Positions 8,684 through 33,928 of a DNA stretch of 64,000 nt are shown here, piece after piece (the stretch's first letter is position 1; each line of letters opens with the position of its first letter). This DNA comes from an uncultured bacterium (lineage in GTDB: Bacteria; Desulfobacterota_D; UBA1144; Nemesobacterales; UBA2774): assembly GCA_963825135.1 (NCBI GenBank), contig CAWGRW010000009.1:1184001-1248000 (forward strand), in the 5' to 3' direction. Below the pieces are notes generated by a model. It had not been told where the DNA came from, made no database searches, and worked only from the letters and a program-made list of their open reading frames with translations. A program made the position numbers and the translations under genes.

Positions 8684-8692
8684 GATGATACG

Positions 8693-15532: not shown

Positions 15533-15592
15533 AACCTCTAAAGACCCCTGCTTTGTACGCTTCGAATAAATATCCCAATATTTATTCGGGAT

Positions 15593-16570: not shown

Positions 16571-16633
16571 ATTTTCAGGCCTAGTGTAAACCAATTTTAT
16601 CTGAAAATCTTTAATCCCGTTTTAGCGCTGTGC

Positions 16634-17584
16634 CTAAGATGTCTGAATTGTTTTTCTCGCTTCAAATAACCCTCCGACCATGCCTGGAATGACGTTGATA
16701 ATTGCAAATACGATTATCGAATACGCGAATGCATCGTTATTGTTAACCCCAAAAGCACCCAATAGGAGAATGAAAGAGCTCTCTCTCAAACCCAGTCCCG
16801 ATATCGAAATGGGGATCATAGTCACCAGCACTACCACGGACCTTATCCATCCCAAAGCGACGAAGGGAACATTTGCATCTATCGATAGTAGAATCAGGTA
16901 ATAAATAATGAGGCTGATCAGCTGTGAGATTACAGAAACTATTACCATTATGGCGACTGATGAAAACGGGACTTTTCCGAGAGTAGACAGGTTCTTGATG
17001 GACTTATTTAATCTGGGCGATTCGTACACCCTATTCGCAAGCTCGAGGAGTTTTCCTATTGCTCTATGGTCTCTATCAAAGAATATCAAAAAACATAAAG
17101 CCGCAAGCCCTGCCAGTATTGAAACCATTACAAGGACCAGCAAATAGGAATCCTTAGGAAAGCTCATAACCCAAAAGAGCAGGCCGACTGCGCAGAGCGC
17201 GATAGTCGCGAATACCCGGTCTAACGCTAAAGCAACCAGAGCTTCCGATAGTTTATTGTCCTTGCCGGAGAGCTTGTAGAATTTTATCGCACCCCCCGTC
17301 AGATTCCCGCCGGGAAGGAAAAGGCCGTAAAACACAGTGCTGAGGTTAATCTCGAATGCCTGAAATGTGGTTATGTTCAGGCCCTGACGAGCTGAGAAGA
17401 ACTTGAGTCTATACGAAGCAATAAGCCATACAACAAAATCTAAAACGAGGGCGAATATCAAATAAACATGGTTTGCGGACAGGATCGAGCTTTTTACGTC
17501 GGAAAGATTGATTTTAGACAAAAGGTATAAAATAATTGCGAACGCAACGGCAAATCTAAGGATAATCCATATTCTTTTTTTCAT
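16634..17584 (-). CDS. Lysylphosphatidylglycerol synthase TM-domain / flippase-like membrane protein
   Basis: FLPGGNLTGG, DRVF, PISISGLGLRE motifs. Confidence 0.85.
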   Translation of the reverse strand: MKKRIWIILRFAVAFAIILYLLSKINLSDVKSSILSANHVYLIFALVLDFVVWLIASYRLKFFSARQGLNITTFQAFEINLSTVFYGLFLPGGNLTGGAIKFYKLSGKDNKLSEALVALALDRVFATIALCAVGLLFWVMSFPKDSYLLVLVMVSILAGLAALCFLIFFDRDHRAIGKLLELANRVYESPRLNKSIKNLSTLGKVPFSSVAIMVIVSVISQLISLIIYYLILLSIDANVPFVALGWIRSVVVLVTMIPISISGLGLRESSFILLLGAFGVNNNDAFAYSIIVFAIINVIPGMVGGLFEARKTIQTS

Positions 17585-17702
17585 GTATCGATACGCAGCC
17601 GCCCTGAGAACCGGATAGATACGCTATGTCCTCATCTGCAATAAGACTACTTGCTCGACAGGGAAAGCCTCGATTAATTTAGCCTTACCTTACCTTGTTA
17701 CT

Positions 17703-18917
17703 TTAATTGTGGAAAGCGCACTTCCCCTTTAAGTATGACGGTCGTTCACACCCGAGCAGGTCAAGCACCGTCGGAGCGAAATCTATAGTCTCGATCTCTT
17801 TTTTATCGGCTTTATACCTGTCGTCCGTGAGGATTAACAAACCCTTTTCGGATTCGTTTTCCGGCAGGTAACCGTGATACCCTCTGTATACCGGGTCGTT
17901 GAGCCTTTTCCTCTGCTGCCCGTTTGTGACTCCGAGATATAAATTTCCTAACGGCTGATAGAAATCGTTCGGGAAGAAAATATAGCCGGGATTCAATATA
18001 AGATAGTATTCGCCGCACCTGTCGTTTTCGAACCTAACATTATATTTGTGTAAATCGTCGTACCTCATAAGATTTCCGTTTTGGATCCCAGAAAGATAAT
18101 GCAGGAGCTTTTCCCGTGCGGTGTCCGTATGGAACCAGAACCTCGCCTTGGACGCTTCTATATAATAGGTGATTTCATGATTTTTTATCCCGAGCTCTTC
18201 CATTTTTTCGATCAAATTGAACGTACCTTTGACGGCTTCCTGACCATGGTCTGACAGGATAAGCAGAGTCGCACCGTTCTTAATGCACAGGGAGTGAAGC
18301 TTTCTCATAAAGTCATCGAGCTTTTTAAAGATCTGGTTGATTTTTTCATTATCGTCTAGGTTCCAGTGCTCGAGTGTATCGATAGCGTGTGTTTGTATCA
18401 TTTCCAGTCTCTTGGAATGATTGAAGAGGCGGGACAGTACCTCTTCCAGACGGTCGAGCCTGCTGTTGAAAAAGTAAGTGCAATTATCCTCTCCAATCAT
18501 GCCGAGGAACGTATCATGATCGTTGAGTTTTTGATAATGTTTTAAATCTTGTTTCATGTACTTAGTCTTAAAAATTTCAAACCGTTTCCTCCGCCAGGGC
18601 GGTATAGATGCCAGATCGTAAGAACCTGTCACCATGTGGGCGAAACACTGCGCAGTTGTTGTGGCTATGTCGGGCAGATATTCATATGGCGCTTTATTAT
18701 CGAGGTTAATATCCGACTTTAGTCTGACCTGCCATATCTCATGCTCATGAGGATATAGACCGGTGTAAAGACTCGGTATGAGATCGACCTCGGGGAACGT
18801 ATTAATTCTCGTCCACGGATATTTATCAATGAGACCGGTCATGTAGGGCGTATTTGCATGATCCAATCTTCTTAGGTCGAGCGCAGTTGCATAAAAAACC
18901 ATTAATTTGTCGATCAT
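17703..18917 (-). CDS. Alkaline phosphatase superfamily (nucleotide pyrophosphatase/phosphodiesterase) protein
   Basis: SLYTGLYPHEH, ILSDHG, GYHGYLP, IDFAPTVL. Confidence 0.85.
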   Translation of the reverse strand: MIDKLMVFYATALDLRRLDHANTPYMTGLIDKYPWTRINTFPEVDLIPSLYTGLYPHEHEIWQVRLKSDINLDNKAPYEYLPDIATTTAQCFAHMVTGSYDLASIPPWRRKRFEIFKTKYMKQDLKHYQKLNDHDTFLGMIGEDNCTYFFNSRLDRLEEVLSRLFNHSKRLEMIQTHAIDTLEHWNLDDNEKINQIFKKLDDFMRKLHSLCIKNGATLLILSDHGQEAVKGTFNLIEKMEELGIKNHEITYYIEASKARFWFHTDTAREKLLHYLSGIQNGNLMRYDDLHKYNVRFENDRCGEYYLILNPGYIFFPNDFYQPLGNLYLGVTNGQQRKRLNDPVYRGYHGYLPENESEKGLLILTDDRYKADKKEIETIDFAPTVLDLLGCERPSYLKGKCAFHN

Positions 18918-18986
18918 CTTGCCTGTCCTCTTCGTCCGTTGATTTATACCATTTATTCCTTATATTCGATTAAAGTAGAGCCTCGA

Positions 18987-19712
18987 CTATACATTCTTCA
19001 CAGCCTTCATTACTATCGGGTTACCAAATAGATTTGTAATATGCAGGATTCTGAATATTTCTTCAATTTTGATTGATATTGCCGGGCGATTAACCCAGCG
19101 GTGAAAAGCCAGAGGCATAAAAAATTGTTTCTCGGCGTGAATAGCTTGAAACCCGTTTTTCCTTATTTCCTCTGACGCTTCCCTCAGTGAGATAATATTA
19201 TAGACTCTTGTTTCGGGCAAGAACAGCTTAATTAATCTCTTGAGCAGTATGTCCGCGCCGGCAAAACTAAAGATAGACGGAAAGTCTATAACGAATTCCC
19301 CGCCCGAGACTCTGCAAATCTCCCGAACCCCCTTCCTCCAATCGCGGAGGTGCATGAGCATCCTCGAAGAAACGACACAGTCAAAGGCACCGTCTTTAAA
19401 TGAGAGCAGGTACGCATCACAAACTACCGCCTTTATGTTCAATCCCAGCTCATCAGCCTTTACCTTCGCAACCCCGAGCATCTCCGGCGACATATCAGAC
19501 GCTATAACCTCCTTCGATGCGAGGAGTAAAGGGATTGTGAGCTTTCCGGTCCCGGCCCCCAGATCCAAAATAGCAATGTTTACAGGGCCTACTAATGAGA
19601 GAAACGTGGATGCTTCGAGGCCCTCCAGGTAACGTCCAAAACGACTGCCGTACCTGTCCCCGTCGAACCTCCGGGCGACGTTTTCATTCCGGTAATAAGA
19701 GGCTTTATTCAT
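18987..19712 (-). CDS. Class I SAM-dependent methyltransferase
   Basis: ILDLGAGTGK, FDCVVSSRMLMH. Confidence 0.9.
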   Translation of the reverse strand: MNKASYYRNENVARRFDGDRYGSRFGRYLEGLEASTFLSLVGPVNIAILDLGAGTGKLTIPLLLASKEVIASDMSPEMLGVAKVKADELGLNIKAVVCDAYLLSFKDGAFDCVVSSRMLMHLRDWRKGVREICRVSGGEFVIDFPSIFSFAGADILLKRLIKLFLPETRVYNIISLREASEEIRKNGFQAIHAEKQFFMPLAFHRWVNRPAISIKIEEIFRILHITNLFGNPIVMKAVKNV

Positions 19713-21388
19713 ATTGAGTAAGGTGCGAAAAATTTTGAACGAATCTCGTTCTTTTCTTCTTTAACCCTTAATTCGCCCCAGCCGAGCTCCCGTGCCATGA
19801 TTTCGGCGTATTCGTCCAGGTTGCTTTTTATGTTTGCGATGTTTAAGCAAAGATCGGTTCGCCTGAAAACCACGTCGCTCAATTTCCCGGCCATTTCTTC
19901 TTTAATTGCATAAATGATCCGAGCTTTGATCACGGACCGCCCGTCAAACATTTCTGATTCGCGTTCCCGCGCGGGGTCCGCGCATTTTAGGACTTCTCGA
20001 TAAGATGAGCCATATGCATATATGAGCTTCCGGATGAACGACGGGTCTAATCTCGGGTCGTTCTTCATTATCTCCTCATTGATATAATGCTCCGGCTCAC
20101 CGTACCCGGCGCAGCTCAAGACGGTAGATTCGGTTTTTGAAGGACAGTGCGCCTTGCCCATTTTTCTTAATACCGTATCTATGGTTTTTTCGGCGACAAT
20201 CCTGGCGTCGCTAAGTTTGACGCCGATTACCGAGATCAGGCCCTTCATCCCCCGCTCCTGTCCATGGTCGAGGATGCGATTATTATTTTCGATTCTTGCG
20301 CGACCGTTACCGTCGATCCGGGTGGGTATATAACCTCCGTAAACGAACGCGATATTTTCCATCTTCAGGGAAGCGGAAGGAAATGAATCATTGATCTCGT
20401 TTAAGAAAGAGCTTGATTCCTCTTCCGTGATATAAAAATTATCGGGTTCCGATGACGATGTCAGATGTTCGGTCCCTATCAGAGATCTGGTATTCCACGG
20501 CGTTATGAATAAATACCTGGAATTCCGCGAAAGCAAGCCGGCTGTATCCCTGTTTTGAATTCTTCTATAGAGTCCCAGGGCATACCCGGAGGTCAATTGG
20601 CGATCAACGAGCAGGTTAAACGCCCTCGAAATTCCGTATTGCCTGGTGGAGGCGTTATTACCCAAACGGTTAAGCAAGCCTATTAGCCACGGGCCTGACG
20701 CGTTCACTATGAATCTGGCGCGAATCTCGAAATTGTCCCCTGTAAGATTGTCTTTAACCTTGGCTCCCCTTACCCCCGTATCGTCTTTCAGTAATTCAAC
20801 GACCTCGAGGTAATTCGCGAGGTCGGCTCCCTCCTTGGACGCGGAAACCGCAAGCTCCAGGGTAAATCGCTCCGAGTCGGATAACTGGCAGTCGGTGAAG
20901 ACTATCCCTCCTCTGAGGTTATTATGCTCAAGGCCCGGGATAATTTCCATGCACTCTTTTCCCGACAGGGCCCGGTTCTCGAACTTCACGCTGTACATGC
21001 TCCGGGTTCCGGTAAGTCCTGAGCCGAGCAGGTTATAGACTCTGACCGCGGCGGCCAGAGATTCTTTTCTCAGGATATGATTCCCGTAGACGGGGATCAT
21101 TACCGGCATCGGGCGCACCAGGTGCGGAGCCATATTCATGAAAATAGCTTGTTCCCGGATGCATAGTCTGGCGTTCCTGAGATCAAATGAACGGAGGTGC
21201 CTAAATCCTCCGTGTATTATTCTCAGGGAGTTCGAAGAAGTACCGCTTCCGAAGTCCGATTTGTCAGCGAGAGCCACCGACAACCCCCGAAGCGCTGCGT
21301 CCCACGCCAGGAAGAGCCCGAATATCCCGCCCCCGATGACAAGAAGGTCGTACTCTTTTTCGGATAGTCGGTGCAATTCCCTCTTCAT
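19709..21388 (-). CDS. FAD-dependent glycerol-3-phosphate dehydrogenase/oxidase family protein
   Basis: DLLVIGGGIFG, DFGSGTSSNS, IHGG, VNASGPW, DVVFRRT. Confidence 0.88.
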   Translation of the reverse strand: MKRELHRLSEKEYDLLVIGGGIFGLFLAWDAALRGLSVALADKSDFGSGTSSNSLRIIHGGFRHLRSFDLRNARLCIREQAIFMNMAPHLVRPMPVMIPVYGNHILRKESLAAAVRVYNLLGSGLTGTRSMYSVKFENRALSGKECMEIIPGLEHNNLRGGIVFTDCQLSDSERFTLELAVSASKEGADLANYLEVVELLKDDTGVRGAKVKDNLTGDNFEIRARFIVNASGPWLIGLLNRLGNNASTRQYGISRAFNLLVDRQLTSGYALGLYRRIQNRDTAGLLSRNSRYLFITPWNTRSLIGTEHLTSSSEPDNFYITEEESSSFLNEINDSFPSASLKMENIAFVYGGYIPTRIDGNGRARIENNNRILDHGQERGMKGLISVIGVKLSDARIVAEKTIDTVLRKMGKAHCPSKTESTVLSCAGYGEPEHYINEEIMKNDPRLDPSFIRKLIYAYGSSYREVLKCADPARERESEMFDGRSVIKARIIYAIKEEMAGKLSDVVFRRTDLCLNIANIKSNLDEYAEIMARELGWGELRVKEEKNEIRSKFFAPYSI

Positions 21389-21392
21389 CTTC

Positions 21393-22157
21393 TTATTTAA
21401 TTACCTTCGCGATCAGGTGGTGCCCGACACCCTTAACGAGTTTTCTTGGGATTAGATTGAAGGCCGGAACAAAAAGATAGTTGTATAAGTATGAGGTGGC
21501 GCCCCTGTTTAATTTAGTTTTAACCGGATACCGGTCTGTAACAATCTCAAGCCTTGAGAAACAACTCAACAGCCCACGGAGCTGATTTATAGAATACTGT
21601 CTGAAGACTGGGGCGTCGTCTCTCATCAGTCCGATATTAAAAGTCGTGTGGAGAAAGTTCAGCCACGAATCAGAGTGATATACGACAAGACACGCCTCAC
21701 CGCCCGGTTTAAGAACCCGGTGCATTTCCTCTACCATCCTTTTAGGGCTCGGCGTGTAGGAAAGGGGTGAGTGAGAGTAAATCGCATCGAAGCTGTTGTC
21801 TCCAAAATTTAAATCCTCTCCGTTCATTTGAAGAACCTCTCCGGAAATCCTTTCAAGCTCCAAATGTTTTCTCGCCAGCGCTACAGCAAAATCCGTAAGA
21901 TCCACCCCTGTAACTATCGCTCCCCCCTTGGCAAAACTAATAAGATCGGTACCGAAACCACAGCCCACTTCCAATAATTTCTTTCCTTTATAACCGTCAA
22001 AGTCAACGTGCCTTTTCAGGTAATTGAGCTTTTGATAATGATACTTCTCGACGTCGCGAAAGAATTCGACAGTCCCCGGAGGGTCTTTTGACACTTCGAA
22101 CTCGTGCGGTTTCTTAGTCCAGTATTCCCTTACAAGATCTATTTGAGTTTGTTTCAT
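21393..22157 (-). CDS. Class I SAM-dependent methyltransferase
   Basis: LLEVGCGFGTD, FDAIYS, RVLKPGG. Confidence 0.9.
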   Translation of the reverse strand: MKQTQIDLVREYWTKKPHEFEVSKDPPGTVEFFRDVEKYHYQKLNYLKRHVDFDGYKGKKLLEVGCGFGTDLISFAKGGAIVTGVDLTDFAVALARKHLELERISGEVLQMNGEDLNFGDNSFDAIYSHSPLSYTPSPKRMVEEMHRVLKPGGEACLVVYHSDSWLNFLHTTFNIGLMRDDAPVFRQYSINQLRGLLSCFSRLEIVTDRYPVKTKLNRGATSYLYNYLFVPAFNLIPRKLVKGVGHHLIAKVIK

Positions 22158-22215
22158 TTTTTTCGCCCGCGCATGCTGCTGGGTAATATTATTTCAAAAT
22201 TGAAGCGTGATCGAA

Positions 22216-23403
22216 TCATCTCATTATAGGGCTCTCTGATGTGATAAGGTCGAGTATTTGTCTGACCTTTTCTATTTTTTCTTCGGAACTGTAATTAGTT
22301 TCAAAATATCGCTTGGACCTTGTACCCAGTCCTTCAGCATAAGAAGGATCGTCCAGGAGCGAGATTACACCGTACGCAATTGATTCGGGGCGAGGATCGA
22401 CCAAAACGGCTATTTCGTTATTTAGAATTTGAGTGTGCGCTTCAATGTTTGTAGCCACTATCGGCTTTCCCGATTGCATGTAGTTGTAGATTTTCAGGGG
22501 AGGGTTAGTGCCTGTAATCCTCGTGGATATCAGAACATCGGCAATGTTTACAAACGCCGGCAGCGCCTCTACGGGTAACGACCCGGTAAAATGAAAATTA
22601 GATATAATCCCGAGCTGTTCAATGAGCTTACTCAGGCTTTTAATCTGCTGAGGTCTGCCGCCGATTAGAACGAACAGTACGTCATCCCTTTGTTTTGCTA
22701 TCAGATTTGCGGATTCGATGAGAAGCTCCAGTCCCTGATAAACTTCGAACGTCCCCGCGTATAATACTATTTTCCTGCAGGCTATACCAAGCTGGGGAAG
22801 CTCGACAGAAGTCAAACCCAGGTTACTGATATCCGGGGAATCGGGTGTCGGACCGTTCTCTATCATTACACTAGCCACCCTGTCGTTGATTCTCCTGACA
22901 TAATTATCCAGCATCGGGGAGACGGTAATGACGCCATGGCTTGAATTGATTACCCACCTTTCAATTAATTCGAGCATAGATATTATGGGGGAATAGCCGG
23001 AATACCCGAAATTTCTCATAGCCTGCGGAATGGAAGAATGAAAATCATACAGGTGTCTGACTTTGAAAATTTTAGAGAGCGCCACACCGAATATAGAAGC
23101 CTCTTCATGCGAATGCAGAAGGTCGTACCGGTTCTTTATCAAGATGCGGACCGCTTTAATAATAACGAAAGCGTCGAGAAAGATTTTATTTATAGAAGGT
23201 CCCACGGCTACTTCTTTAATAAACGGGAAATTCATTATGCGGTGAATTCTTACGCCGGGAATTATGACGTCCTCTCCCAAATGATATGTTATGACGTCCA
23301 CCTCATGTCCGAGTTCGGAAAAAGCCGCCAGCCTGGATTTGATAGCGATAGGCGTACCGCGCGGAGAAAAAAAGGGCTGTGGCGCTAACATTAATATTTT
23401 CAT
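22216..23403 (-). CDS. Glycosyltransferase family 4
   Basis: MKILMLAPQPFFSPRGTP, YAGTFEVYQG, PLKIYNYMQSGKPIVAT. Confidence 0.92.
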   Translation of the reverse strand: MKILMLAPQPFFSPRGTPIAIKSRLAAFSELGHEVDVITYHLGEDVIIPGVRIHRIMNFPFIKEVAVGPSINKIFLDAFVIIKAVRILIKNRYDLLHSHEEASIFGVALSKIFKVRHLYDFHSSIPQAMRNFGYSGYSPIISMLELIERWVINSSHGVITVSPMLDNYVRRINDRVASVMIENGPTPDSPDISNLGLTSVELPQLGIACRKIVLYAGTFEVYQGLELLIESANLIAKQRDDVLFVLIGGRPQQIKSLSKLIEQLGIISNFHFTGSLPVEALPAFVNIADVLISTRITGTNPPLKIYNYMQSGKPIVATNIEAHTQILNNEIAVLVDPRPESIAYGVISLLDDPSYAEGLGTRSKRYFETNYSSEEKIEKVRQILDLITSESPIMR

Positions 23404-23440
23404 GATTCAGGATTGGATCACCGGGCCCGGGGTTTCCCTC

Positions 23441-24421
23441 TCATTTCCTCGAATTTGTCTCTAAAACTTTCCTTATCATGTAAGTGGGTTTATTTTGGGT
23501 TTCATAGTGACTCCTTACGACGAGTTCACCCAATAATCCCATCGTGCCGAGCTGCACGCCGAATATAATTAAAAGCACCGCCATTAACAGGAGCGGTCTC
23601 TCCGCCAGGGGATGGCCGAAAAATATTTTGAGAAAGGATAGGTATGTAGCTATAACCAATCCCGAGAAGAGCGATGCAATCCCGAGCAAGCCGAAAATCC
23701 TGAGGGGGCTGGTAGAATAGCCTAAAAGAAACTTGACCGTGATCAAATCCAATATGACTCGCGGAGTCCTCATTATCCCGTACTTGGACTTGCCTGAATT
23801 TCTCCGCAGATGTTTTACCTCCACCTCGCCCACACTGACCCCCATCCAGCTTGCTATTGCCGGAATGAATCTGTGCATTTCGCCGTAAAGTTTTAAATTT
23901 TTAACTATCTCGCTTTTGTACGCTTTCAAAGAGCAGCCATAGTCGTGAAGCTCGATCCCCGTGATACGTGAGAGAATGAAATTTGCAATGCGGGAAGGCA
24001 ATTGTCTCGTTAGCGGACCATCGGCTCTGTATTTACGCCAGCCGCTGACGATATCGTACCCCTTCTCCATCTCCGCCAGCAGATTCGGGATGTCCGCCGG
24101 GTCGTTCTGCATGTCGCCGTCCATCGTCACGATAACGGCGCCCCTTGCCCGATCGAAGCCCGCTGTGAAGGCCGGGGTCTGGCCGAAGTTTCGGCGGAGG
24201 CTGATTACTATCAGGCTCGGGTCGCCCGATTGTAGTTTATTCATTATTTCGAAGCTGTTATCGGTGCTCCCGTCATCGACCATGATGATCTCGTAATTTC
24301 TCTTTATCTTATCGAGCGTCTCCTTCAGCTTATTGAATAGCGGAATAATATTCTCCGCTTCGTTAAATACGGGGATAACTATCGATAGCTCAACATCATT
24401 TACAGTCATGGTAGAGACCAT
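23441..24421 (-). CDS. Glycosyltransferase family 2 (polyprenyl-phosphate sugar transferase, ArnC/DPM1-like)
   Basis: SIVIPVFNE, DDGSTD, RRNFGQ, DGDMQNDP; two C-terminal TM helices. Confidence 0.93.
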   Translation of the reverse strand: MVSTMTVNDVELSIVIPVFNEAENIIPLFNKLKETLDKIKRNYEIIMVDDGSTDNSFEIMNKLQSGDPSLIVISLRRNFGQTPAFTAGFDRARGAVIVTMDGDMQNDPADIPNLLAEMEKGYDIVSGWRKYRADGPLTRQLPSRIANFILSRITGIELHDYGCSLKAYKSEIVKNLKLYGEMHRFIPAIASWMGVSVGEVEVKHLRRNSGKSKYGIMRTPRVILDLITVKFLLGYSTSPLRIFGLLGIASLFSGLVIATYLSFLKIFFGHPLAERPLLLMAVLLIIFGVQLGTMGLLGELVVRSHYETQNKPTYMIRKVLETNSRK

Positions 24422-24864
24422 TTTATCTTGATTGCTCCCGATTTGAAAGTGCGGGGGGTCGCGGGGTCGAATTCCGGCATGAGACGATCCCTCTTGAGCT
24501 ATACATGGTAATCACTTGCGGGAAAAGACTCGCGCGGACTTAACTAATGCTGAATATTGAGTGAAACGATGGCGGGCTTGGAGGAACGCAAAACCCTTCC
24601 GAATCGAATCAAACCCGCTGCCCGCATAAGGGGACATACAACTCCGCGCCCGCCCGGAATCGCACCAGGTGTACTCGGCGAATTCCCTACTTACGGGTCA
24701 CAAATCGTAAGGCTCAAGGGACAGGTCAGCTTGCTGATTAATCCGGTGTCTGTTGGCAGAAGTCTCCGGATCGTACGGCCTCTTAGACGTTATGCCGGTC
24801 GTTGTAAACACGCCGGCAGTCGGTTACCTTCACTTTTAAGTAATGCCAAAACTGGAGGTAAATC

Positions 24865-25479
24865 ATGCGCTCTGATATTCGTGAAGGTTTGCGGTTTCCC
24901 GACTATGAACTGCCTGACCACTCAGGCGACACGCGGAAGCTCTCGGACTTGCAGGGGAGCAACCCCTTGGTGCTCCACTTGTCGCGGGGCGGGTTCGACC
25001 CCAAGGAGCACAGATACCTCCGCCGCCTGGTCGACTCGTGGCCCGACTTCAAAGCCGCCTATACGCGAATCGTCGTGATATCGACGGATAACCAGCTCGA
25101 GATTAACGAGTTCCGCGACAGTCTGGGGGCGGAGTTCCCTTTCCTGTCCGACCCGGGTCGAAAGATTCAGAAGGACCTCGATATCCAGGAATACACCGAT
25201 CCGGTGCACGACCCTATGATTCCGCATACTTTCGTTCTCGAGCCCGGTCTGATTATCTCCAGGATTTATAACTGCTACTGGTACTGGGGCCGTCCCACGA
25301 TATCCGAACTGCACATCGACCTGCGGGCCGTATTCCGAAAAGTCCGTCCGGACTTCGACCTCAGCGCTCCCGGCCTGCGAGAGGCGTGGGAACGCGGCGA
25401 CCGGGATCAGTTCCTGGTCGCCCCGATCGAAAAAGCCATCCGCTATACCGAGGGGACATCGATAGGCGTCAAGCGGTGA
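24865..25479 (+). CDS. Redoxin/AhpC-TSA domain protein
   Basis: FPDYELPDH, VVISTD, FPFLSDP, YWYWGRP; GGAGG RBS. Confidence 0.8.
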   Translation: MRSDIREGLRFPDYELPDHSGDTRKLSDLQGSNPLVLHLSRGGFDPKEHRYLRRLVDSWPDFKAAYTRIVVISTDNQLEINEFRDSLGAEFPFLSDPGRKIQKDLDIQEYTDPVHDPMIPHTFVLEPGLIISRIYNCYWYWGRPTISELHIDLRAVFRKVRPDFDLSAPGLREAWERGDRDQFLVAPIEKAIRYTEGTSIGVKR

Positions 25480-25481
25480 GT

Positions 25482-26357
25482 TTAGGCAGCCTTCTTCCCG
25501 GCCGCGGTATTCTTGTCGAGAAATCGTTCGATGTGGCCGGCAATGACATCTACGTGCGATTCGAGCGTAAAGTGTCCGCCGTCGAGTAAATGGACCTCGA
25601 TATTCTTCAAATCCCGCTTGTATGCGGTTCCGCCTTCGTTGGTGAAGAATATGTCATTTGTTCCCCAAGCCACCAGGGTAGGAGGCTGGTGCTTTTTGAA
25701 GTAGGCTTGCAAGCCCGGATACCCTTTCAAGTTGTTTTGATAATCGTAGAGTAACTCGATCTGTATATCGACGCGTCCCGGTAGATTCAAGTAATAGAGA
25801 TCCATATTCCAGGCATCGGGGCTGACCTTTGCGGGGTCGGGCTCTCCGTTTACGTAAAGATACTTCACCGTGTCATGAGTAAGCACTTCCCTCAGGGGCT
25901 TTTCGGTACTTTCGTTCCTGTTTTTCCATAGCTCCCTTACAGGATCGAAGCCTTTTCCGATGCCCTCCTCGTAAGCGTTCGAGTTTTGAATTATCAGGGC
26001 CTCTATCCACTCCGGATGCCTGGCCGCGATACGAAATCCCACGGGGCCGCCGTAGTCCTGGACGAACAGACTGAATGTGCTGAGCCCGATCTTCCGTATG
26101 AACTTCTCCATCACCTCGGAGAGATTATCGAAGCTGTATTCAAACTTGTCCACGGGAGGACTGTCGCTGTTGCCAAAACCGGGATAATCCGGCGCGACGA
26201 GATGGAACTTCCCGGACAAAGCCGTGATCAGGTTCCGGTAATAGTGGGACGACGAGGGAAATCCATGCAGCAATAGAATGGTCGGGGCGTCCTTCGGTCC
26301 CGCCTCCCTGTAAAATATTTCAAGCCCGTCTACTGCAATCGTACGATAATCCGTCAA
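25482..26357 (-). CDS. Alpha/beta hydrolase (epoxide hydrolase/dehalogenase-like)
   Basis: LLHGFPSSS, APDYPGFG, QDYGG nucleophile elbow, GGHF. Confidence 0.93.
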   Translation of the reverse strand: MTDYRTIAVDGLEIFYREAGPKDAPTILLLHGFPSSSHYYRNLITALSGKFHLVAPDYPGFGNSDSPPVDKFEYSFDNLSEVMEKFIRKIGLSTFSLFVQDYGGPVGFRIAARHPEWIEALIIQNSNAYEEGIGKGFDPVRELWKNRNESTEKPLREVLTHDTVKYLYVNGEPDPAKVSPDAWNMDLYYLNLPGRVDIQIELLYDYQNNLKGYPGLQAYFKKHQPPTLVAWGTNDIFFTNEGGTAYKRDLKNIEVHLLDGGHFTLESHVDVIAGHIERFLDKNTAAGKKAA

Positions 26358-26552
26358 TATAGCCTCCGCTGTTCAGTATTTAAAGAGTATTAGACGCAGT
26401 GGTTATGCCGAGGGATCCAGGTTATTTTTTTCCGCTTCATGGAGATGCCCCCCATGAGTAAAATTGAGACTGTCAAAAAAGCAGGTCCTGAATGTATACA
26501 TGCGGATTGTACAATCCCTAATCGTTTCAGAAGTTAACAAAATCCCGCATAC

Positions 26553-26597
26553 GGATTCCTGATCCCGGAGTCGGAGGTTCGAGCCCTCCCGGGGACG
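26553..26597 (+). other. 3' half of a tRNA-Arg(CCT) gene (att-site scar)
   Basis: GGA-TTCCTGA-TCCCG, T arm GGAGG-TTCGAGC-CCTCC, acceptor strand CGGGGAC-G; no D arm or 5' acceptor strand upstream. Confidence 0.75.
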
Positions 26598-26638
26598 CAA
26601 TGGTCTAATGTAGTTACAGCGCCCCGGGAGTGAATGAA

Positions 26639-26740
26639 CACAGGGCACTCGATAACATGACGCCTGAGGAGTATGTGAAAAAGCACGTAAAGACATCAGA
26701 AATCTCTAATTCACACGGTAGAGCTTTTGGGTGAGGCCCA
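26639..26740 (+). mobile_element. IS3-family transposase C-terminal remnant with right end
   Basis: Translates HRALDNMTPEEYVKKH...*, like the HSxLxxxTPxEF end of IS3 OrfB, then CTCTAATTC...GGGTGAGGCCCA resembling IS407-group right ends. Confidence 0.55.
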
Positions 26741-26977
26741 AAATATGTAAAACCTGACTTAAATCATGGACCTCTTACAGGGGAGCAGGACGGAGAACTG
26801 GTCTTGACACGGGGCTCTTTTTTTGAGATAGTAGGACTAGAAAAGGTTCATGCGTAAAATGGATTTATTTTGTTGCGGGCACGAAAGTTAGCATAGTAGT
26901 TTTTGCGGAATCTTTAGTACTTGGCCCGTCCAAATGACTGTCGTTCCGATGACATTAACACAATAAAGGAGAATGCC

Positions 26978-27295
26978 ATGAAGTACATGATCAGCTGGTT
27001 CGAGCGCCCGCAAGGTTCGCCTGCGGAGTACGAGAACGCCCAGAAGCGCATACTCGAAGTGTTCACTCAATGGAAGGCGCCCGACAATTTCAATATCGAA
27101 TTGTTCGTAGTGCGGGTCGGTGAGTGGGGCGGGCATTTGTTGGTGGACTGCGACGATCCCCTGGCTATTCACAAATTTTGTTCGACCTGGCCTGCTTTCG
27201 AATTCCAGGCACGGCCCGTGATTCCCGTGGAGGACGCTGTCCGCGTCGAGCTCGAGGCTATGGCCTGGCGGGATAGTCTGAAGAAAGGCAAATAA
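26978..27295 (+). CDS. DUF3303 family protein
   Basis: MKYMISW...WKAP...GEWGG...PVIPVEDA; AAGGAG RBS before ATG 26978. Confidence 0.8.
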   Translation: MKYMISWFERPQGSPAEYENAQKRILEVFTQWKAPDNFNIELFVVRVGEWGGHLLVDCDDPLAIHKFCSTWPAFEFQARPVIPVEDAVRVELEAMAWRDSLKKGK

Positions 27296-27316
27296 AGCGG
27301 CTATTTCCTTCGGCTG

Positions 27317-27796
27317 TCAATATGGCGTTCCGTCTTTGTGGACGAACTTCCACTTACCCTCCGCTAGCGAAGCCGCGAGATCGTCGTCGGGGTAGTGTCC
27401 TTCATCTCCCGGCGTTCTGTCGCCCACTTCGAGGTACACGACGTCCTCAGCGGTTTCGTTGATCAGATGGTGACCGTTGCCTGTGCCCGCTTTGAAACCT
27501 GCGCACATTCCCGGAGAGAGCACCGTATGACCTTCGTCCGTGTGTAATGTCGGACTACCCCGCAAGACGTAAATGAACTCGTCTTGTTTGGTGTGATAGT
27601 GACGGATAGACGAGATTGCATTGGGCGCCAGGCGTGTGAGGTTGACGCCAAAGTTGGTAAGGCCGAACAAATCTCCTAGCGGCCGTTTCTCCCTGCCCGT
27701 CATCTGTGAAGCGAATGGCTCAGGGTAGTTTGACGGCTTGGTCCGTGCGGGCGCCTCAGCCGCATCGACGGCGACAGGCCTTGTTTCTTGTGACAT
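27317..27796 (-). CDS. Cupin domain protein
   Basis: GLTNFGVN, RHYHTKQDEFIYVL, GHHLIN, YPDDDL; AGGAGG RBS before ATG 27796. Confidence 0.92.
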   Translation of the reverse strand: MSQETRPVAVDAAEAPARTKPSNYPEPFASQMTGREKRPLGDLFGLTNFGVNLTRLAPNAISSIRHYHTKQDEFIYVLRGSPTLHTDEGHTVLSPGMCAGFKAGTGNGHHLINETAEDVVYLEVGDRTPGDEGHYPDDDLAASLAEGKWKFVHKDGTPY

Positions 27797-28022
27797 ATAT
27801 GCCTCCTGATCCTGCATGGTGAGTTTCGGCGTATCCGGTTCCATCTTCATTTTTTGAATCCGGGTTCATCACATATCTGACGTCTGTAATCGGCTAATCG
27901 ATGAACTCTCGAAGCAGACACGTAAATCTTAGCAATAATTATATCCTTTGGTCAAATCGGCCAGGCGGATCGATGCCGGTCGAGTTATTTCCTTTGCTGC
28001 TTTACGGTTACATCGCCTGGTG

Positions 28023-28071
28023 CAATGGCGGGCGATGGGGGACTCGAACCCCCGGCCTCAGGCTTCGGAGG
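28023..28071 (-). repeat. 49-bp direct repeat of the tRNA-Arg(CCG) 3' end (att site)
   Basis: CAATGGCGGGCGATGGGGGACTCGAACCCCCGGCCTCAGGCTTCGGAGG identical to 30281-30329. Confidence 0.95.
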
Positions 28072-28270
28072 ACGCGAGCAAACTAGTAAAGCGTAATATA
28101 CATTCGTATTGAATCTCAGCAATCACAGAATGTTGAGTTGTTTTTCTACGCAACACCAATTTATACAGAATGGTGAATAACGGCACAATATGGACACTTA
28201 TATGGACACTTCCATTTTAATGCGTGGCCGAGCTTATGGTGTACTTACGCCAGATGTCCTTCACCACTCG

Positions 28271-28984
28271 TTATGCTGCGTTGTCGTTTGGTGTAACCAT
28301 GCAAAGAAACGCAACCCTTTTGTAAAAGGCCAAAACCCAAGCACTCATTGTATCGTGGCCTTGAACCCGTTGAAACCAATATGCAAAGACGTTTTCACCG
28401 AACACATTCGGTGAATTTCGTGTCACCTTATCGAAGATGTCAAGGACCCGCACCGTGGCATCGGAGTCGATGTTTGTAAGGCCCGCCGCAGAATAAGCGG
28501 TGACGTGAAAGTATTCGGGAATACGTTTGCCAAATTCGTGGAAATACAAACCGGTTGTGATTCTTGCGGCCACACGATCGAGACGGGAGAGATCGACATC
28601 ATATCCAGGTGCAGTTCCGAGGTAGATTCCACCAGCAGATAAGAGATCAAGATTACCCATGCTATTGAAGAATGCTTGCTGGAATCCCTTCTTCGATGGT
28701 TTTTGTAGGGATCGGTAGATCGAAGGCAGAATTGCTTTGACGGCGGGATGATCACCTGTATCGTGGCGCATGGAAATCACGAGCCGGAAGTATTCGTCGT
28801 CTCTGGATGCACCTTCGTTGCAAGATCGGCAACTGGGAACAGTGATCAGATTCGACGGTCTCGGTTTCGGAAAGAGAGTTTTCGGCGGAATGTGATCGTC
28901 GGTCAACGCTTCCGCACTACCGCAATAAACGCAAAAATAATTCGTAACATTGGGTCCGTCATATGTGTTGACTACCATTTTCAT
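28271..28984 (-). CDS. HNH endonuclease domain protein (Zn-binding)
   Basis: CVYCG...TDDHIPPK...NLITVPSCRSCN motif at the N-terminus. Confidence 0.85.
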   Translation of the reverse strand: MKMVVNTYDGPNVTNYFCVYCGSAEALTDDHIPPKTLFPKPRPSNLITVPSCRSCNEGASRDDEYFRLVISMRHDTGDHPAVKAILPSIYRSLQKPSKKGFQQAFFNSMGNLDLLSAGGIYLGTAPGYDVDLSRLDRVAARITTGLYFHEFGKRIPEYFHVTAYSAAGLTNIDSDATVRVLDIFDKVTRNSPNVFGENVFAYWFQRVQGHDTMSAWVLAFYKRVAFLCMVTPNDNAA

Positions 28985-30011
28985 ACTCTTGATCTATCTC
29001 TCCTAATAGTTCTAAAATATATGAATGTTTGTTAGATAAAAAGCTTGCGAAAATATAAGCATCTTTTTCAGACAAGGTACTCTTCTCGCCGTCTTCAAAG
29101 AAGGATTCAAGCTTTCTAATTGGATAGAGAACGTCGTCTATACCGTGGATAAATACATCGTTTGCGGGATATTCTCCTCTTTCTTTGAGCTTTTCTATTA
29201 GCTTGTTGTAACGATCATGAATAAGCTTCAAGCAAATAGCCCCAATCTTCCTATTTGAAGTTGTAAGAATGCCATCAAATACCTTTTCAAATTCGTAACT
29301 CATACCATGAGGGAGCAAGTTGACCAATTTTTCCATGCGAAACTTCTCCTTGTGTGCTTTCTCTTCCGCTTCCAATCTGCCCGTTAACGTGAACAGAATC
29401 GAGGAAATATATTTTCTTTGCTCGGCTACCCATCTAGGAATGTTGATGTCCCTATGCTCGGAGGTGCCATCGATGTAAAAAGAAAAGATACTAAAGCCGG
29501 CCGGACCCAGCGACGCTCTTGAGATATAATGATAGGAGATAGGCTTCGATTTTGTCTTGGCCCGTTTTGTGGGATGTCCAACAGCATCGTTCCGTATCCT
29601 ACGAATCTCTAATAGTATTGGGTAGTTGTTAATCTTCTCTGAAATTGCAAGCGATTCGCAAAGATTGTCAACTGCATCTTGCTGGACATACATTGCTTGG
29701 AGAAGCCCATAGACCGTAAGGTAGTAAACTGCCGTGCTATCTCCAAACTCCTTTGCCTCGAAAGCGGTAATCGCTTCTTCCGTGTCTCCGATCACATCAA
29801 GCGAACTGCAAAGTTGAGAAAACAACGGTTTGTTCTGTCGTAACTCATAATGCATTCGCGGATCGTTTATATGCTCGCGAATTTGTTTTATCCGGTTTTG
29901 AACTGGATTCACGTTTTCAGCCCTATCTTTGTGAGAGACGTTAAATATTTCTAAGCGCTTTACTTGCTGATTATACGAAATATTTCCATCTAACCAGATT
30001 AAGAATAACAA
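28959..30011 (-). CDS. Helical protein with HEPN-like RxxxxxH motif
   Basis: IRRIRNDAVGHPT motif preceded by LQAMYVQQDA; alternative GTG start at 29912; overlaps the HNH gene by 26 bp. Confidence 0.7.
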   Translation of the reverse strand: MLFLIWLDGNISYNQQVKRLEIFNVSHKDRAENVNPVQNRIKQIREHINDPRMHYELRQNKPLFSQLCSSLDVIGDTEEAITAFEAKEFGDSTAVYYLTVYGLLQAMYVQQDAVDNLCESLAISEKINNYPILLEIRRIRNDAVGHPTKRAKTKSKPISYHYISRASLGPAGFSIFSFYIDGTSEHRDINIPRWVAEQRKYISSILFTLTGRLEAEEKAHKEKFRMEKLVNLLPHGMSYEFEKVFDGILTTSNRKIGAICLKLIHDRYNKLIEKLKERGEYPANDVFIHGIDDVLYPIRKLESFFEDGEKSTLSEKDAYIFASFLSNKHSYILELLGEIDQEYENGSQHI

Positions 30012-30283
30012 AATTTGTAGATTTTATCTAACGTCTGTTATCTCTTTATAAGCTTTTCATGATAAGCCTGTGATAGTAGCGGACATTCCATATGGATGTA
30101 TTGATAGATGACATGGATGGTACGCGCTCAGGCGGTTCTATAAGCCGTCATCATCAATAGTGTGTATCGATAGATATACGACATGTGAATTGTGGACGCC
30201 CTGCGTGGACACTAGTATTAATATCACCACCCTCGTGTAAACAAAATACTCGATGTAATTAACTCTAAGCATTGAAAAAACAA

Positions 30284-30359
30284 TGGCGGGCGATGGGGGA
30301 CTCGAACCCCCGGCCTCAGGCTTCGGAGGCCTGCGCTCTATCCACTGAGCTAATCGCCC
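30284..30359 (-). tRNA. tRNA-Arg(CCG)
   Basis: GGGCGAT-TA-GCTC-AGTGGATA-GAGC-G-CAGGC-CTCCGAA-GCCTG-AGGCC-GGGGG-TTCGAGT-CCCCC-ATCGCCC-G-CCA; complete 76-nt cloverleaf. Confidence 0.97.
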
Positions 30360-31152
30360 GGTTTTGAGATTCCAAGCTCCTTCATCACTACCTGCATATC
30401 TTCCCAGAGCGGCTTCTTGAAATTCGGGTTCCTGAGAAGGGCCGCAGGATGATAAGTTACCATAAGTTTCGCCCTTCCGTATTGATGGAACTTCCCCCGG
30501 AGGCTCCCGAGGCTCTGCTTCGTTTTAAGTATGGACTGCGCGGCCGTGCTCCCTAGGCACACTACGACCCCGGGCTCTATCGACCTTATCTGCTTGAATA
30601 GGAACTGCTCGCAGGTCGCCATCTCGTCGGGCTCTGGAGTCCTGTTCTCGGGCGGGCGGCACTTCACCACGTTGCATATATATACGTCCTCTCTCTTTAG
30701 CCCCATCGCCTCTATTATCTTGGTGAGGAGCTGTCCCGACCTCCCCACGAACGGCGTCCCTGCAGGTCCTCGTCCCTCCCCGGCCCTTCCCCCACGAATA
30801 CGAGCCTCGCCTTCGGGTTCCCTTCCCCGAACACCAGATTCGTCCTCCCCTCGTGGAGCTTGCACCGGGTGCAGTCCCCTATCTCCGCCCTTATCTCTTC
30901 GAGCGTCATCTTTTTAGCGGAGGCGTCGAATATGCCGATCTGCTCTTCTATTCTTATAACGTCGTCCTTTTTTTCGGGTGATGTCTGAGCTTTTGGTTGC
31001 GTCCTCACGGGTTCTTTCCCGGGCGCCTTCGGGATGGTCTCTTCCTTGGCCTTTTTTTCCACCGGCGCCCTCGCGACTCCCATGGATTTCTCAAATTCGA
31101 GACGCCTCTTCAAGTCCTCGATGATCCCTTTCAGCTCTGATTCACGGCTCAT
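30350..31152 (-). CDS. Uracil-DNA glycosylase family 4, one frameshift near 30759
   Basis: CTRCKLH, FVGEGPGRDED in one frame; PFVGRSG, NVVKCRPPENR, TYHPAALL in the next; G-run indel. Confidence 0.92.
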
Positions 31153-31176
31153 ATCAGAATCCTTCTTTCTCTAACT

Positions 31177-31301
31177 TCCCTCTCCCCTCTGTGGAACGGC
31201 TGCAAGCGAGCGCGCAGTCGGACGCCCTATAACAAAGGCTCTGAAGCACCTTAACTCCCGGCTCAATGCTGCCCAAACCAAAGAGGGTCAGGGTGAGGGG
31301 G
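31177..31301. repeat. REP-like extragenic element
   Basis: Ends CCCTCTCCCCT ... GAGGGTCAGGGTGAGGGG resemble the widespread CCCTCTCCC..GGGTGAGGG intergenic repeats; single copy in window. Confidence 0.35.
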
Positions 31302-31436
31302 TACATTAATATAATAAAACACGGTTTATGCCGAAAAATCCATATCCCGGAAATATACGTATTCTTTGTCCTATGCCTCCGGTTATGGTAAATATTTCTA
31401 TCCTTATTATAAACGGCCGGAGCCTGAGAGCACGCG

Positions 31437-33928
31437 ATGAAAGAGAGTTATAAACCGGAAGAAATAGAAAAAAAGTGGCGGGACATATGGGACGAGAGGA
31501 AGCTGTACGAGGTCCGGGCGGAGAAGGGACCGTGAGAAGTACTACGTGCTCGAGATGTTCCCTTACCCCTCGGGCCGCATACACATGGGCCACGTCAGGA
31601 ACTACACCATCGGGGACGTCGTCGCCCGGTATAAGCGCACGCGCGGGTATAACGTGCTCCATCCTATCGGGTGGGACGCGTTCGGGCTCCCTGCGGAGAA
31701 CGCTGCTATCGCCCGGGGCGTGCACCCCGCCGTGTGGACCTACGACAACATCGCGCAGATGAAGGCGCAGTTAAAACAGCTCGGGTTCAGCTACGACTGG
31801 ACGAGAGAGATCGCCACCTGCGACCCGTCCTATTATAAATGGGAGCAGATGGTATTCACCCGTATGTACGCGAAGGGGCTCGCCTACCGGAGATCGACGA
31901 CCGTCAACTGGTGCCCGTCGTGCGAGACCGTGCTCGCGAACGAGCAGGTGGAGGACGGGCTCTGCTGGCGCTGCGGTTCCACAGTGGAATTAAAGGTGAT
32001 GGACGGGTGGTTTTTCAAGACGACTGAATATACCGAGGAGCTCCTCGAATGGACCGAAAAGCTGAAAGAAGGCTGGCCCGAAAGGGTCCTCGCCATGCAG
32101 AAGAACTGGATCGGGAAGAGCACCGGAGCCGAAATAGATTTTCCGCTCGAAGAAACCGTTGGCGGTGAGAGCGGTCTCAGCATATTCACGACGCGCCCCG
32201 ACACCGTATTCGGCGTCACGTATATGAGCATCGCGCCCGAGCACCCGCTCGCGGCTGAGTTGATAAAAGGGAAGTCTCAGGAAAAGGAAGCGCTCAAGTT
32301 CATAAAACGAGTCACGAAACAGAGCAGCCTCGAACGGATAGCGGAAGGAGCGAAGAAAGAAGGCGTCTTCACGGGAGCTTTCGCCATAAACCCTTTCAAC
32401 GGTCTGCGCGTCCCGATATACATAGCCAACTTCGTGCTCGTCGAGTACGGGACCGGAATAATCATGTGCGTCCCCGCTCACGACCAGAGGGACTTCGAGT
32501 TCGCAAGGGAGTACGGGCTTCCTATCGTTCCCGTGATAGAACCCGAAGGGACTAAGCTCCGTGCGGAAGATATGACCGGAGGCATACGAAGACCCCGGAG
32601 TTATGACGAATTCAGGGCAGTTCACCGGCCTCCCTTCGGAAGAAGGGCAAGGAGAAGGTAATAGAATATATAGAGGAAAAGGGTATAGGCAAAAGAAGGG
32701 TCAATTACAGGCTCAGGGACTGGGGCATTTCGCGCCAACGTTACTGGGGCGCGCCAATTCCGATCGTCTATTGCGATAAGTGCGGCGTCGTTCCCGTTCC
32801 CGACGAAGACCTCCCCGTAGAGCTTCCGCTCGACATAAAATTCACGGGGAAGGGCGGGTCGCCGTTGGCTAAGGCCAAGAGCTTCGTCAACACCGTCTGC
32901 CCCAAGTGCGGCGGCAAGGCGAAGCGCGAGACAGACACCATGGACACGTTCGTCGAGTCCTCCTGGTACTTCCTCAGGTACGCGTCCCCTCATTACGGCG
33001 AAGGCATGTTCGATAAAAAGGAGGTCGGGTACTGGCTCCCCGTGGACAGGTACATCGGCGGTATCGAGCACGCGATACTGCATCTGCTCTACGCGAGGTT
33101 CTACACGAAGGTGCTCCGGGACTTGGGCATGTGCGCTCTCGACGAGCCCTTCACTAACCTCCTCACGCAGGGGATGGTCATAAAGGACGGGGCCAAGATG
33201 TCGAAGTCCGTCGGCAACATCGTAGACCCGGACGACATGATAAAGAAATACGGGGCCGACACGGTGAGGCTCTTCATGCTCTTCGCCGCCCCCGTGCAGA
33301 AGGACCTCGACTGGAGCGACGAGGGGATAGAAGGGGCGTTCAGGTTTTTAAACAGGCTCTGGCGCCTCGTCTCCGACAGGTTCCCTGCAATCGAAAGCCT
33401 CAAGGGCAAAGCCCCGGACGCGAGTAAGATATCCGTCTCCGGCAGGGACCTTCTGACCAAGGTGCATAAGACTATAAAGAAGGTTACGGACGACCTCGAA
33501 AAATTTCAGTTCAATACTGCTATCGCCGCCGTCATGGAGCTTCTTAACGATACGTCCCGCATCGACACCCGCCGGAGACGAGGACGTAAAGGTGGTGAGG
33601 GAGTCGGTCGAGGCCATGGTGAGGCTCCTTTACCCGATAGCTCCCGCACGTGTCGGAGGAGCTCTGGAATGAGCTCGGATATGAGGGGTTGCTCGTCGAT
33701 GAGCCCTGGCTCGAGTGGAATAGAGAGCTCGTGGCCGGAGCCGCGATCACCGTGGTCGTTCAGGTGAACGGGAAGGTGAGGGCCCAGCTCTCGATGGACG
33801 CGGACGTAAGCGACGAAGCGATGAAAGAGGCCGCGTTCGCCGACGAAAAGGTCAGGGGCTATCTCGCCGGAAAAGAGCCCAGGAAGGTGTTCGTAGTCCC
33901 CAAAAAGATTGTAAATATAGTAGTTTAG
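31437..33928 (+). CDS. leuS: Leucine--tRNA ligase, five apparent single-base frameshifts
   Basis: [64 protein letters not shown]; frame breaks near 31530, 32578, 32646, 33570, 33643. Confidence 0.96.

Follow-up and report, generated by a model that had tools for sequence, protein, structure and literature searches.

Tyrosine integrases duplicate tRNA 3′ ends upon insertion, and elements that keep such duplications after losing the integrase are known. Cis-mobilizable elements (CIMEs) are described as retaining their attachment (att) sites while the integrase is lost, with tandem accretion at an att site as a route to arrays (PMC5704250). The tycheposon islands of Prochlorococcus are reported to be seeded by tRNAs and to show partial tRNAs in rows, together with broken integrases and DNA that does not belong to the elements (bioRxiv 10.1101/2020.12.28.424599), and the published Islander filters require an integrase open reading frame (ORF) and a length of at least 2 kb (PMC4383910). 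The subject of the present work is a 2.2-kb cassette bounded by copies of the 3′ end of tRNA-Arg(CCG), which lies in a 64,000-nt stretch of DNA (the window) from an uncultured bacterium whose relatives carry the NCBI names Thermodesulfobacteriota or Deltaproteobacteria. The window represents positions 1184001-1248000 of contig C9 in the organism's own genome (G000; 3,128,702 bp in 17 contigs, 94% complete; G-numbers denote genomes and C-numbers contigs). We propose that the cassette is probably a CIME-type, stranded, integrase-less derivative of a family of small tRNA-targeting tyrosine-integrase elements.

The likeness to CIMEs such as those derived from ICESt1/ICESt3 and the streptococcal tRNA-Lys elements extends to several features, since these have their attL and attR within the target's 3′ end, have lost the genes for integration and transfer, stand in tandem with other elements at the site and are expected to move only with the integrase of a related element (PMC5704250). 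In our cassette, too, attL and attR are direct repeats at the target 3′ end and the recombinase has been lost. Unlike these CIMEs, it is much smaller at 2.2 kb, consists of arms and cargo only, resides in an uncultured host lineage of Thermodesulfobacteriota/Dadabacteria type and has as its parent type an element (in the relative G020) in which no conjugation genes were seen. In its layout that parent type recalls intact tycheposons, which are described as carrying cargo, a small replication module and, next to the tRNA, a tyrosine integrase that faces inwards (bioRxiv 10.1101/2020.12.28.424599); the window cassette, however, has neither an integrase nor replication hallmark genes, and its host is not a marine picocyanobacterium. 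With Islander-type islands it shares an intact tRNA gene (tDNA) and a displaced, same-orientation 3′ fragment on the correct side, and its identity block, starting at tRNA position 30/31, fits the anticodon-loop class with the anticodon-centred ‘A’ subsite (PMC4383910). In contrast to those islands, it lacks an integrase ORF and barely passes 2 kb, while sister cassettes of 0.6-1.8 kb fail both filters; because units that lack an integrase or fall below 2 kb are rejected, the whole class goes unreported. Integron cassettes are likewise small, mostly promoter-poor units of one or two genes, stacked at one site without a recombinase of their own, but here the units are delimited by tRNA 3′ repeats and lambda-type arms and no IntI/attI platform is present (no PF00589 match in the window; attC structure was not searched for), so that the integron comparison is an analogy only. 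The kind of element is therefore known; what is new is the lineage, the clean minimal anatomy, the verification of the arm sites against integrase-bearing relatives and the indication that much of the variable genome of this group consists of small tRNA cassettes lacking an integrase. A literature search combining Dadabacteria, genomic island, integrase and tRNA returned no paper naming Dadabacteria among the matches listed, which does not mean that none has been published.

ARAGORN finds a single tRNA in the window, the intact tRNA-Arg(CCG) on the minus strand (30284-30359; Rfam RF00005, 73.3 bits), which is the integration target. Its last 46 nt (tRNA positions 31-76) followed by TTG make up the 49-nt proximal core copy (attL core, 30281-30329), and a 100% identical direct repeat in the same orientation lies downstream of the tRNA at 28023-28071 (attR core). 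This distal copy is a displaced tRNA 3′ fragment, whose T-arm is reflected in a faint Rfam match to the tmRNA/tRNA clan (28037-28054). The runner-up direct repeats in the interval 26000-33000 reach just 24-25 nt at 72-79% identity. Between the copies lie 2,212 nt with a GC content of 0.43, compared with 0.53 for contig C9, within which two ORFs (28271-28984 and 28959-30011) overlap on the minus strand. Searches of Pfam, NCBIfam, PADLOC and PHROGs assigned neither of them to a recombinase family, tblastn with nine integrases gave nothing within the cassette at E≤1, and none of the eight PF00589 matches in the genome falls within the window. An earlier note on this DNA, made from the sequence letters, had described a perfect 49-bp duplication of the tRNA 3′ end on either side of about 2.2 kb that holds two genes but no recombinase; the repeat search upheld the former, and the family searches and tblastn the latter. 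The cassette is a real, foreign 2.2-kb segment at tRNA-Arg(CCG), bounded by copies of the tRNA 3′ end.

Inside these boundaries the element is ordered, from the tRNA outwards, as core (30281-30329), P′ arm (30190-30280), cargo (about 28267-30189), P arm (28072-28266) and core (28023-28071), and besides the arms nothing but cargo is found between the cores. The P′ arm (plus strand) is what remains of a deleted integrase gene: it aligns as a homologue with the terminal ~90 nt of the integrase genes in G006, G020, G027 and G034 and of the decayed integrase of G040, and the similarity to integrase genes ends upstream of 30190. It contains two arm-type sites, TGGACGC at 30193-30199 and TGGACAC at 30206-30212, 69-88 nt from the core. 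The P arm (plus strand) is supported by similarity to the P arm of G006:C159 and to G006:C407, and by the motif pair that the G010 cassette has at the same distance. Its positions 28155-28209 are 87% identical to the P arm beside the tRNA-Gly(ccc) core copy of G006:C159 and 28190-28260 are 82% identical to G006:C407, and it holds TGGACAC at both 28191-28197 and 28203-28209, 120-138 nt from the distal core. The arm-like sites that the earlier note had thought retained are thus real, namely the TGGACRC pairs at 28191/28203 and 30193/30206. As a single site TGGACRC occurs 12 times in the window, near chance expectation, and four of the 12 make up the two tandem pairs in the non-coding ends of the cassette; in tandem (TGGACRC-N4-7-TGGACRC) it occurs only twice in the 3,128,702 bp of the genome, once per cassette end. 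Since the motif was derived from the cassette itself before counting, this genome count is partly post hoc and the weight comes from the relatives.

Across 41 loci of relatives, the tandem pair is found at seven distinct places. In G006:C5 (tRNA-Gly ccc), G027 (tRNA-Leu gag) and G034 (tRNA-Pro cgg) it lies within integrase 3′ ends, 55-95 nt from the tRNA, and at the same distance range it recurs in the decayed integrase (5 stops) beside tRNA-Arg(CCG) of G040. On the other side, it stands 124-137 nt inside the distal core copy in the G010 cassette and in G006:C159, and it is also found in G006:C407, a 1.4-kb contig in which no core copy is visible. Both arm pairs of the window cassette are therefore at the same distances from the core as in integrase-bearing relatives and related elements. 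As attL and attR look complete, with the arm sites of the family, the cassette is plausibly mobilisable. Among the cassettes tabulated at tRNA-Arg(CCG), only that of the window keeps both pairs, most others having lost one or both. At least seven cassette starts with unrelated cargo nevertheless keep the integrase 3′ remnant, ending ~86-99 nt from the core, just past the arm sites, and tblastn finds no integrase coding sequence beyond the remnant end of such cassettes. This shared end point may result from selection for a functional attL or simply from the limit of detectable similarity. A 24-residue integrase-like match in the third cassette of contig C7 (C7:9894-9965; E=3.6e-4 in a tiny search space) was too weak to use.

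The tRNA-Arg(CCG) site is a hot spot, as extra copies of at least 26 nt of its 3′ end are found at 8 of the 20 loci that hold the full tRNA, and other small att-flanked cassettes sit there in contig C7, a strain variant in the same assembly, and in seven relatives. Alternative cargo, which the earlier note suggested looking for in related genomes, is thus present. C7 is 98.0% identical to the window over 4.6 kb on the tRNA-UDG-leuS side and diverges exactly at the tRNA 3′ end. It does not have the window cassette; instead, three further tRNA 3′ copies bracket three other cassettes, none with an integrase, after which an SDR gene follows (the array spans C7 locus coordinates 4568-10015). The first of these (0.6 kb) holds a 3-dmu-9_3-mt/VOC-type gene, the second (0.86 kb, GC 0.66) a TIR-domain gene, and the third (3.8 kb) a 674-residue protein without a known family along with broken ORFs; at the distal end of the TIR cassette, the final ~25 nt of the VOC gene recur together with the core. 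In the relatives the cargo comprises a NotI-type restriction enzyme with a D12 methylase and a pentameric ligand-gated channel (G004), an RND efflux operon (G010 and G002), MMPL/LolA, Memo, radical-SAM, hydrolase and beta-lactamase-family genes (G019) and small ORFs without known function (G009).

An intact integrase is present in just one of the 15 cassettes tabulated at tRNA-Arg(CCG), that of G020. It has 377 residues with the domains Arm-DNA-bind_2, Int_N and Phage_integrase, ends 10 nt from the tRNA and belongs to an 8.3-kb island that terminates in a 46-nt copy and also encodes UmuDC-like, SRAP and DnaB-N/AAA_25 helicase proteins; no conjugation or relaxase family was found among the ORFs scanned in this single intact example of the parent type. 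Beyond the island follows a 2.5-kb cassette, itself without an integrase, that keeps the last 18 integrase codons. The earlier note had anticipated that a relative might carry a full-size island with an integrase here, of which the window element would be just a deletion product. Such an island does exist in G020, yet its cargo is unrelated, so the window element is not simply its deletion product.

On the far side of the array, the conserved flank (NnrS, OsmC) stops near 13942, and in G003 and G007 the same flank comes within ~1 kb of the last att copy. The stretch 13943-30283 is therefore a 16-kb variable region, with the cassette as its tRNA-proximal unit, which by the usual model is the newest insertion. 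Decayed att copies longer than 12 nt were not found in 13943-28022. The older part of the variable region (13988-24421) carries genes for PMT_2, an epimerase, LPG_synthase_TM, a phosphodiesterase, two methyltransferases, an FAD oxidoreductase, GT4 and GT2, i.e. envelope and glycan functions, and G009 and G004 hold a different glycosyltransferase cluster in the equivalent place.

Do such small units move? Between C7 and G003, 567 nt of the VOC cassette are 98.6% identical, whereas the adjacent core DNA is only 84.6% identical; in G009, with core DNA 93% identical to C7, the VOC cassette version is at 75.6%. As the identity of the cassette lies far above that of its flanks, an integrase-less single-gene cassette has recently been exchanged between species. 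Just beyond the distal core copy of the window is the DUF3303 gene (26793-27315). It adjoins the tRNA-Arg array in the own genome and in G002, and in G007 it recurs with 91% nucleotide identity inside a 1.05-kb cassette that is bounded by tRNA-Gly(ccc) on one side and by a perfect 46-nt copy on the other. The neighbouring cupin gene (27317-27850, region 27310-27968) lies 2.3 kb downstream of tRNA-His in G003; DUF3303 and cupin behave as independent single-gene modules, and their order is swapped in G002. Beside the DUF3303 gene, at 26644-26789, sits a ~100-140-nt element with many copies in relatives, often at contig ends, and one other copy in the own genome, on C10.

Similar arrays exist elsewhere in the genome. 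Partial self-copies were found near eight more tRNAs, namely Asp (gtc), Met, Leu (taa), Glu (ctc), Phe, Pro (cgg), Arg (tct) and His (C9 positions 135746-152106, 274036-290266, 662168-667894, 974642-975408, 1644393-1654059, 1780612-1787028, 2187971-2203248 and 2220597-2223806), with three copies at tRNA-Phe, which bound three sulfatase cassettes, two at tRNA-His and one only 0.65 kb away from tRNA-Glu(ctc). Among these eight arrays the tRNA-Met island alone holds an intact integrase. The TGGACRC pair is present in none of the eight, which would therefore belong to other integrase families or have decayed. Together with the hot spot, these arrays give an indication that small integrase-less tRNA cassettes make up much of the variable genome of this group.

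The sole intact tRNA-adjacent integrase of the own genome, at tRNA-Met, is only 32% identical to the G020 integrase and is the best match in the genome, so that the search for a tRNA-Arg-targeting tyrosine integrase, as the earlier note had advised, came back without a cognate enzyme above that level in the 94%-complete assembly. With no helper found, the element looks stranded in its own genome. The earlier note had seen either a mini-cassette borrowing an integrase in trans or a heavily deleted island. The deletion is borne out by the surviving ~90 nt of the integrase and mobilisability stands as plausible, but the trans-acting integrase was not found. Three points speak against its further suggestion of recent or ongoing mobility, drawn from the undecayed repeat and the arm-like sites. 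The integrase is missing, the low-coverage public runs showed no excision joints, and an undecayed repeat says little about recency, as perfect 47-nt copies are also found around cassettes that more than one species carries.

How could the cassette have arisen, then? We suggest that the founding element belonged to the family whose tyrosine integrase carries an N-terminal arm-binding domain, that it recombined with tRNA-Arg(CCG) at or close to the anticodon loop and that, judging from the anatomy of the repeat and the established model of tDNA integration, the insertion restored the tRNA while moving its former 3′ end 2.2 kb away. The integrase gene was then lost save for its last ~90 nt, as the alignment shows, which left 1.9 kb of cargo between a core with its P′ arm on one side and a P arm with its core on the other, and a tandem pair of arm-type sites on both arms. 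Such an element looks like a competent substrate for a cognate integrase while encoding none. Excision, or co-transfer after a related element inserts alongside, might thus occur only once a matching integrase and probably an excisionase arrive, and the perfect tRNA-derived flanks could additionally permit a strain-to-strain swap by homologous recombination. The cassette would be the tRNA-proximal and presumably newest unit of the 16-kb variable region at this hot spot, carrying an HNH-type nuclease and a helical protein that are probably co-transcribed, yet do not form a conserved pair.

Independent reads bear on this locus only thinly. At most 11% of the window's sampled words occur in any one public run, and four runs, each belonging to a different study (freshwater sediment, soil, freshwater), yielded scattered contigs of 151-174 nt at depth 2-3.6. 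Nine pieces fall in the cassette interior with 0 differences, while pieces from the flanks are each several letters off; being shallow and unlinkable, they show only that the cassette sequence exists elsewhere unchanged. In the assembly itself, UDG (family 4; 30350-31152) is split into two ORFs and leuS (31546-33928) into at least three, both being intact in C7 (264 and 828 residues, respectively), and the indels responsible are probably assembly consensus errors rather than signs of pseudogenes. The UDG-leuS intergenic region (31176-31312) is a dispersed short repeat with 24 BLAST hits in the own genome (itself and the C7 copy included), also present in relatives.

Several observations weigh against the CIME-type reading. 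The only intact integrase at tRNA-Arg(CCG), in G020, has a variant pair in the same place (CGGTCAC twice), and the function of the arm sites in general is deduced from position and conservation. Homologues of the G020 integrase adjoin other tRNAs (70% identical at tRNA-Gly, 59% at tRNA-Leu), so that target specificity is unreadable from similarity, and the prediction of integrase specificity by homology was dropped as a method. As the genome is 94% complete, a helper could also be unassembled. The VOC cassette has no P arm, the stop codon of its gene lying 8 nt from the core, so the integrase pathway is not the sole candidate for its transfer, and perfectly conserved tRNA and core copies could have served as homology arms for the exchange. 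Neither an excision product nor a circular form, an empty site of the haplotype or the corresponding joints were seen in the low-coverage runs, which are uninformative on excision. Finally, compared with C7, leuS in C9 has four 1-nt insertions and UDG has one 1-nt deletion, and the fine detail of the assembly is not error-free.

These points bring alternatives into play. Could the second tRNA copy be an artefact, produced when the assembly collapsed strain variants or joined them into a chimera? Strain variants are indeed mixed in this assembly (C7 and C9), 1-nt indels do occur in essential genes, and the distal junction has no independent read support, with no cover over 27704-28444. But the proximal junction is bridged by an independent 158-nt contig from public run X1 (30229-30386) with one difference, the same architecture is seen in seven other genomes as well as in C7, and the arms at both ends are homologous to those of other genomes, which would not be expected of a chimera; this makes an artefact extremely improbable. 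A different possibility is that the cassette is a dead relic of an island that inserted and eroded, its arms and perfect repeat surviving by recency or chance; site-specific recombination would then no longer mobilise it, and any later spread would be due to homologous recombination or vertical descent. This would agree with the lack of a cognate integrase in the genome, with the five stops in the G040 integrase at the same tRNA, with the loss of one or both arm pairs in most other cassettes and with the movement of the VOC cassette despite its missing P arm. Moreover, an arm pair beside the tRNA-Arg(CCG) 3′ end is found in just 3 of 101 genomes of the order (G000, G095 and G097), none of them with an intact integrase alongside. 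However, the window cassette alone keeps both pairs at canonical distances with only cargo between the arms, and the remnants in at least seven cassettes of unrelated cargo, ending just past the arm sites, are not something that random erosion obviously predicts. We consider a dead relic rather unlikely.

At the opposite extreme, integrase-less cassettes might be the main propagating form, captured, shuffled and exchanged across tRNAs, in an integron-like manner, by trans-acting integrases of transient elements. The rarity of intact integrases would fit (one in 15 cassettes at tRNA-Arg(CCG), and one, at tRNA-Met, among the partial copies flanking small cassettes at eight further tRNAs), as would the presence of DUF3303 at the tRNA-Arg array in two genomes and in a tRNA-Gly(ccc) cassette in G007, the VOC cassette being far closer between species than core DNA is, and the integrase 3′ remnants ending near the same point. 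Yet no trans-acting integrase was found, most cassettes lack complete arms, no circular cassette was seen in the low-coverage runs, the shared remnant end may mark the limit of detectable similarity, and accretion with decay, as for CIMEs and tycheposon islands, yields the same pattern. That such cassettes are the main propagating form therefore seems to us very doubtful. It is somewhat less doubtful, though still unlikely, that the flexible genome of the lineage is organised as tRNA-anchored arrays of cargo units of one to a few genes, each delimited by a ~46-nt core with lambda-type arms, which have shed the integrase at a recurrent point just past the P′ arm sites and are captured, stacked, moved from one tRNA gene to another and passed between species by retargetable trans integrases, with the window cassette as the best-preserved unit; if true, the cassette arrays would be a functional integron analogue built from tDNA att sites. 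A stranded CIME-type derivative remains the reading we prefer for the window cassette.

The cargo consists of two minus-strand genes downstream of an AT-rich non-coding stretch (29856-30189, GC 0.36-0.38), the presumed promoter region. Gene 1 (pA; 28959-29855) encodes a mostly helical protein of 298 residues as called, without a known family, although the ORF is open back to 30011 (350 residues). It has 351 homologues, none with a Pfam family, typically of ~312 residues and spread across many phyla, archaea included. Invariant residues include R85, R88 and G93-H94-P95-T96, of which R88 and G93-H94-P95-T96 form an R-x5-H-like motif that may be HEPN-like. Its AlphaFold2 (AF2) model is helical, with a predicted local distance difference test (pLDDT) score of 82.8. 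Searches with pA found no family in Pfam, NCBIfam or PADLOC and weak matches at most in PHROGs; a PDB profile search gave nothing below E=0.09, Foldseek nothing in the PDB at E≤0.001, and the ESM Atlas returned unnamed clusters only. Residues 158-297 aligned with generic four-helix bundles in VIA-align wide (Z ~11), which is below the meaningful level for helical bundles and barely covers the N-terminal domain, so this candidate was set aside.

Gene 2 (28271-28984), which overlaps gene 1 by ~20-26 nt, encodes a predicted HNH-type nuclease of 235-237 residues with an N-terminal HNH (beta-beta-alpha-metal) motif and a C-terminal domain without a known fold. The match to PF01844 reaches 21.0 bits against a cut-off of 21.4, and the PADLOC and PHROG matches are limited to the HNH motif (PADLOC: residues 14-60). 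C16/C19, D28-H29 and C50/C53-N54 are invariant or nearly so in 25 homologues (C-x2-C...D-H...C-x2-C-N). The AF2 model has a pLDDT of 91, with no PDB match at E≤0.001. The PADLOC assignment to PDC-M01 or Septu (PtuA-PtuB) was rejected, as the neighbouring gene has no PADLOC match and there is no PDC-M01A or PtuA ATPase partner.

The two genes do not travel together elsewhere. Of the 80 genome loci and 18 metagenome loci with a homologue of gene 1, none has one of gene 2, and gene 1 has no recurrent neighbour, the largest similarity cluster having two members among 144 neighbours at 98 loci; the pair is therefore local to the window cassette. A viral origin was not favoured either, as viral contigs hold no pA relative, three distant HNH relatives and no match to arm plus core. 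A defence role for the cargo would be a guess, made plausible by the presence of a nuclease at a hot spot where restriction-modification and TIR genes accumulate as well. Homologues of pA are found near tRNAs in other organisms, ~130 nt downstream of tRNA-Glu in a gammaproteobacterial metagenome-assembled genome (MAG; locus L142 5741-5815) and ~870 nt downstream of tRNA-Pro in a Myxococcales MAG (locus L131 5002-5079), which suggests that gene 1 is a frequent passenger of tRNA-linked islands.

The locus thus provides a base-by-base picture of a minimal non-autonomous integrative element. Integrase-less units of this sort appear to hold much of the strain-variable gene content of the group, including restriction-modification, TIR, HNH, RND efflux operons and sulfatases, and the near-identical single-gene cassette in two species shows that such small units are exchanged in nature. 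The conserved GTGTCCA arm pairs offer a testable handle on an integrase family that has at least five different tRNAs among its targets. If integrases act on the cassettes in trans, tRNA genes in this lineage would act as gene-capture platforms; if they do not, the cassette would stand as a well-documented example of how an island decays.

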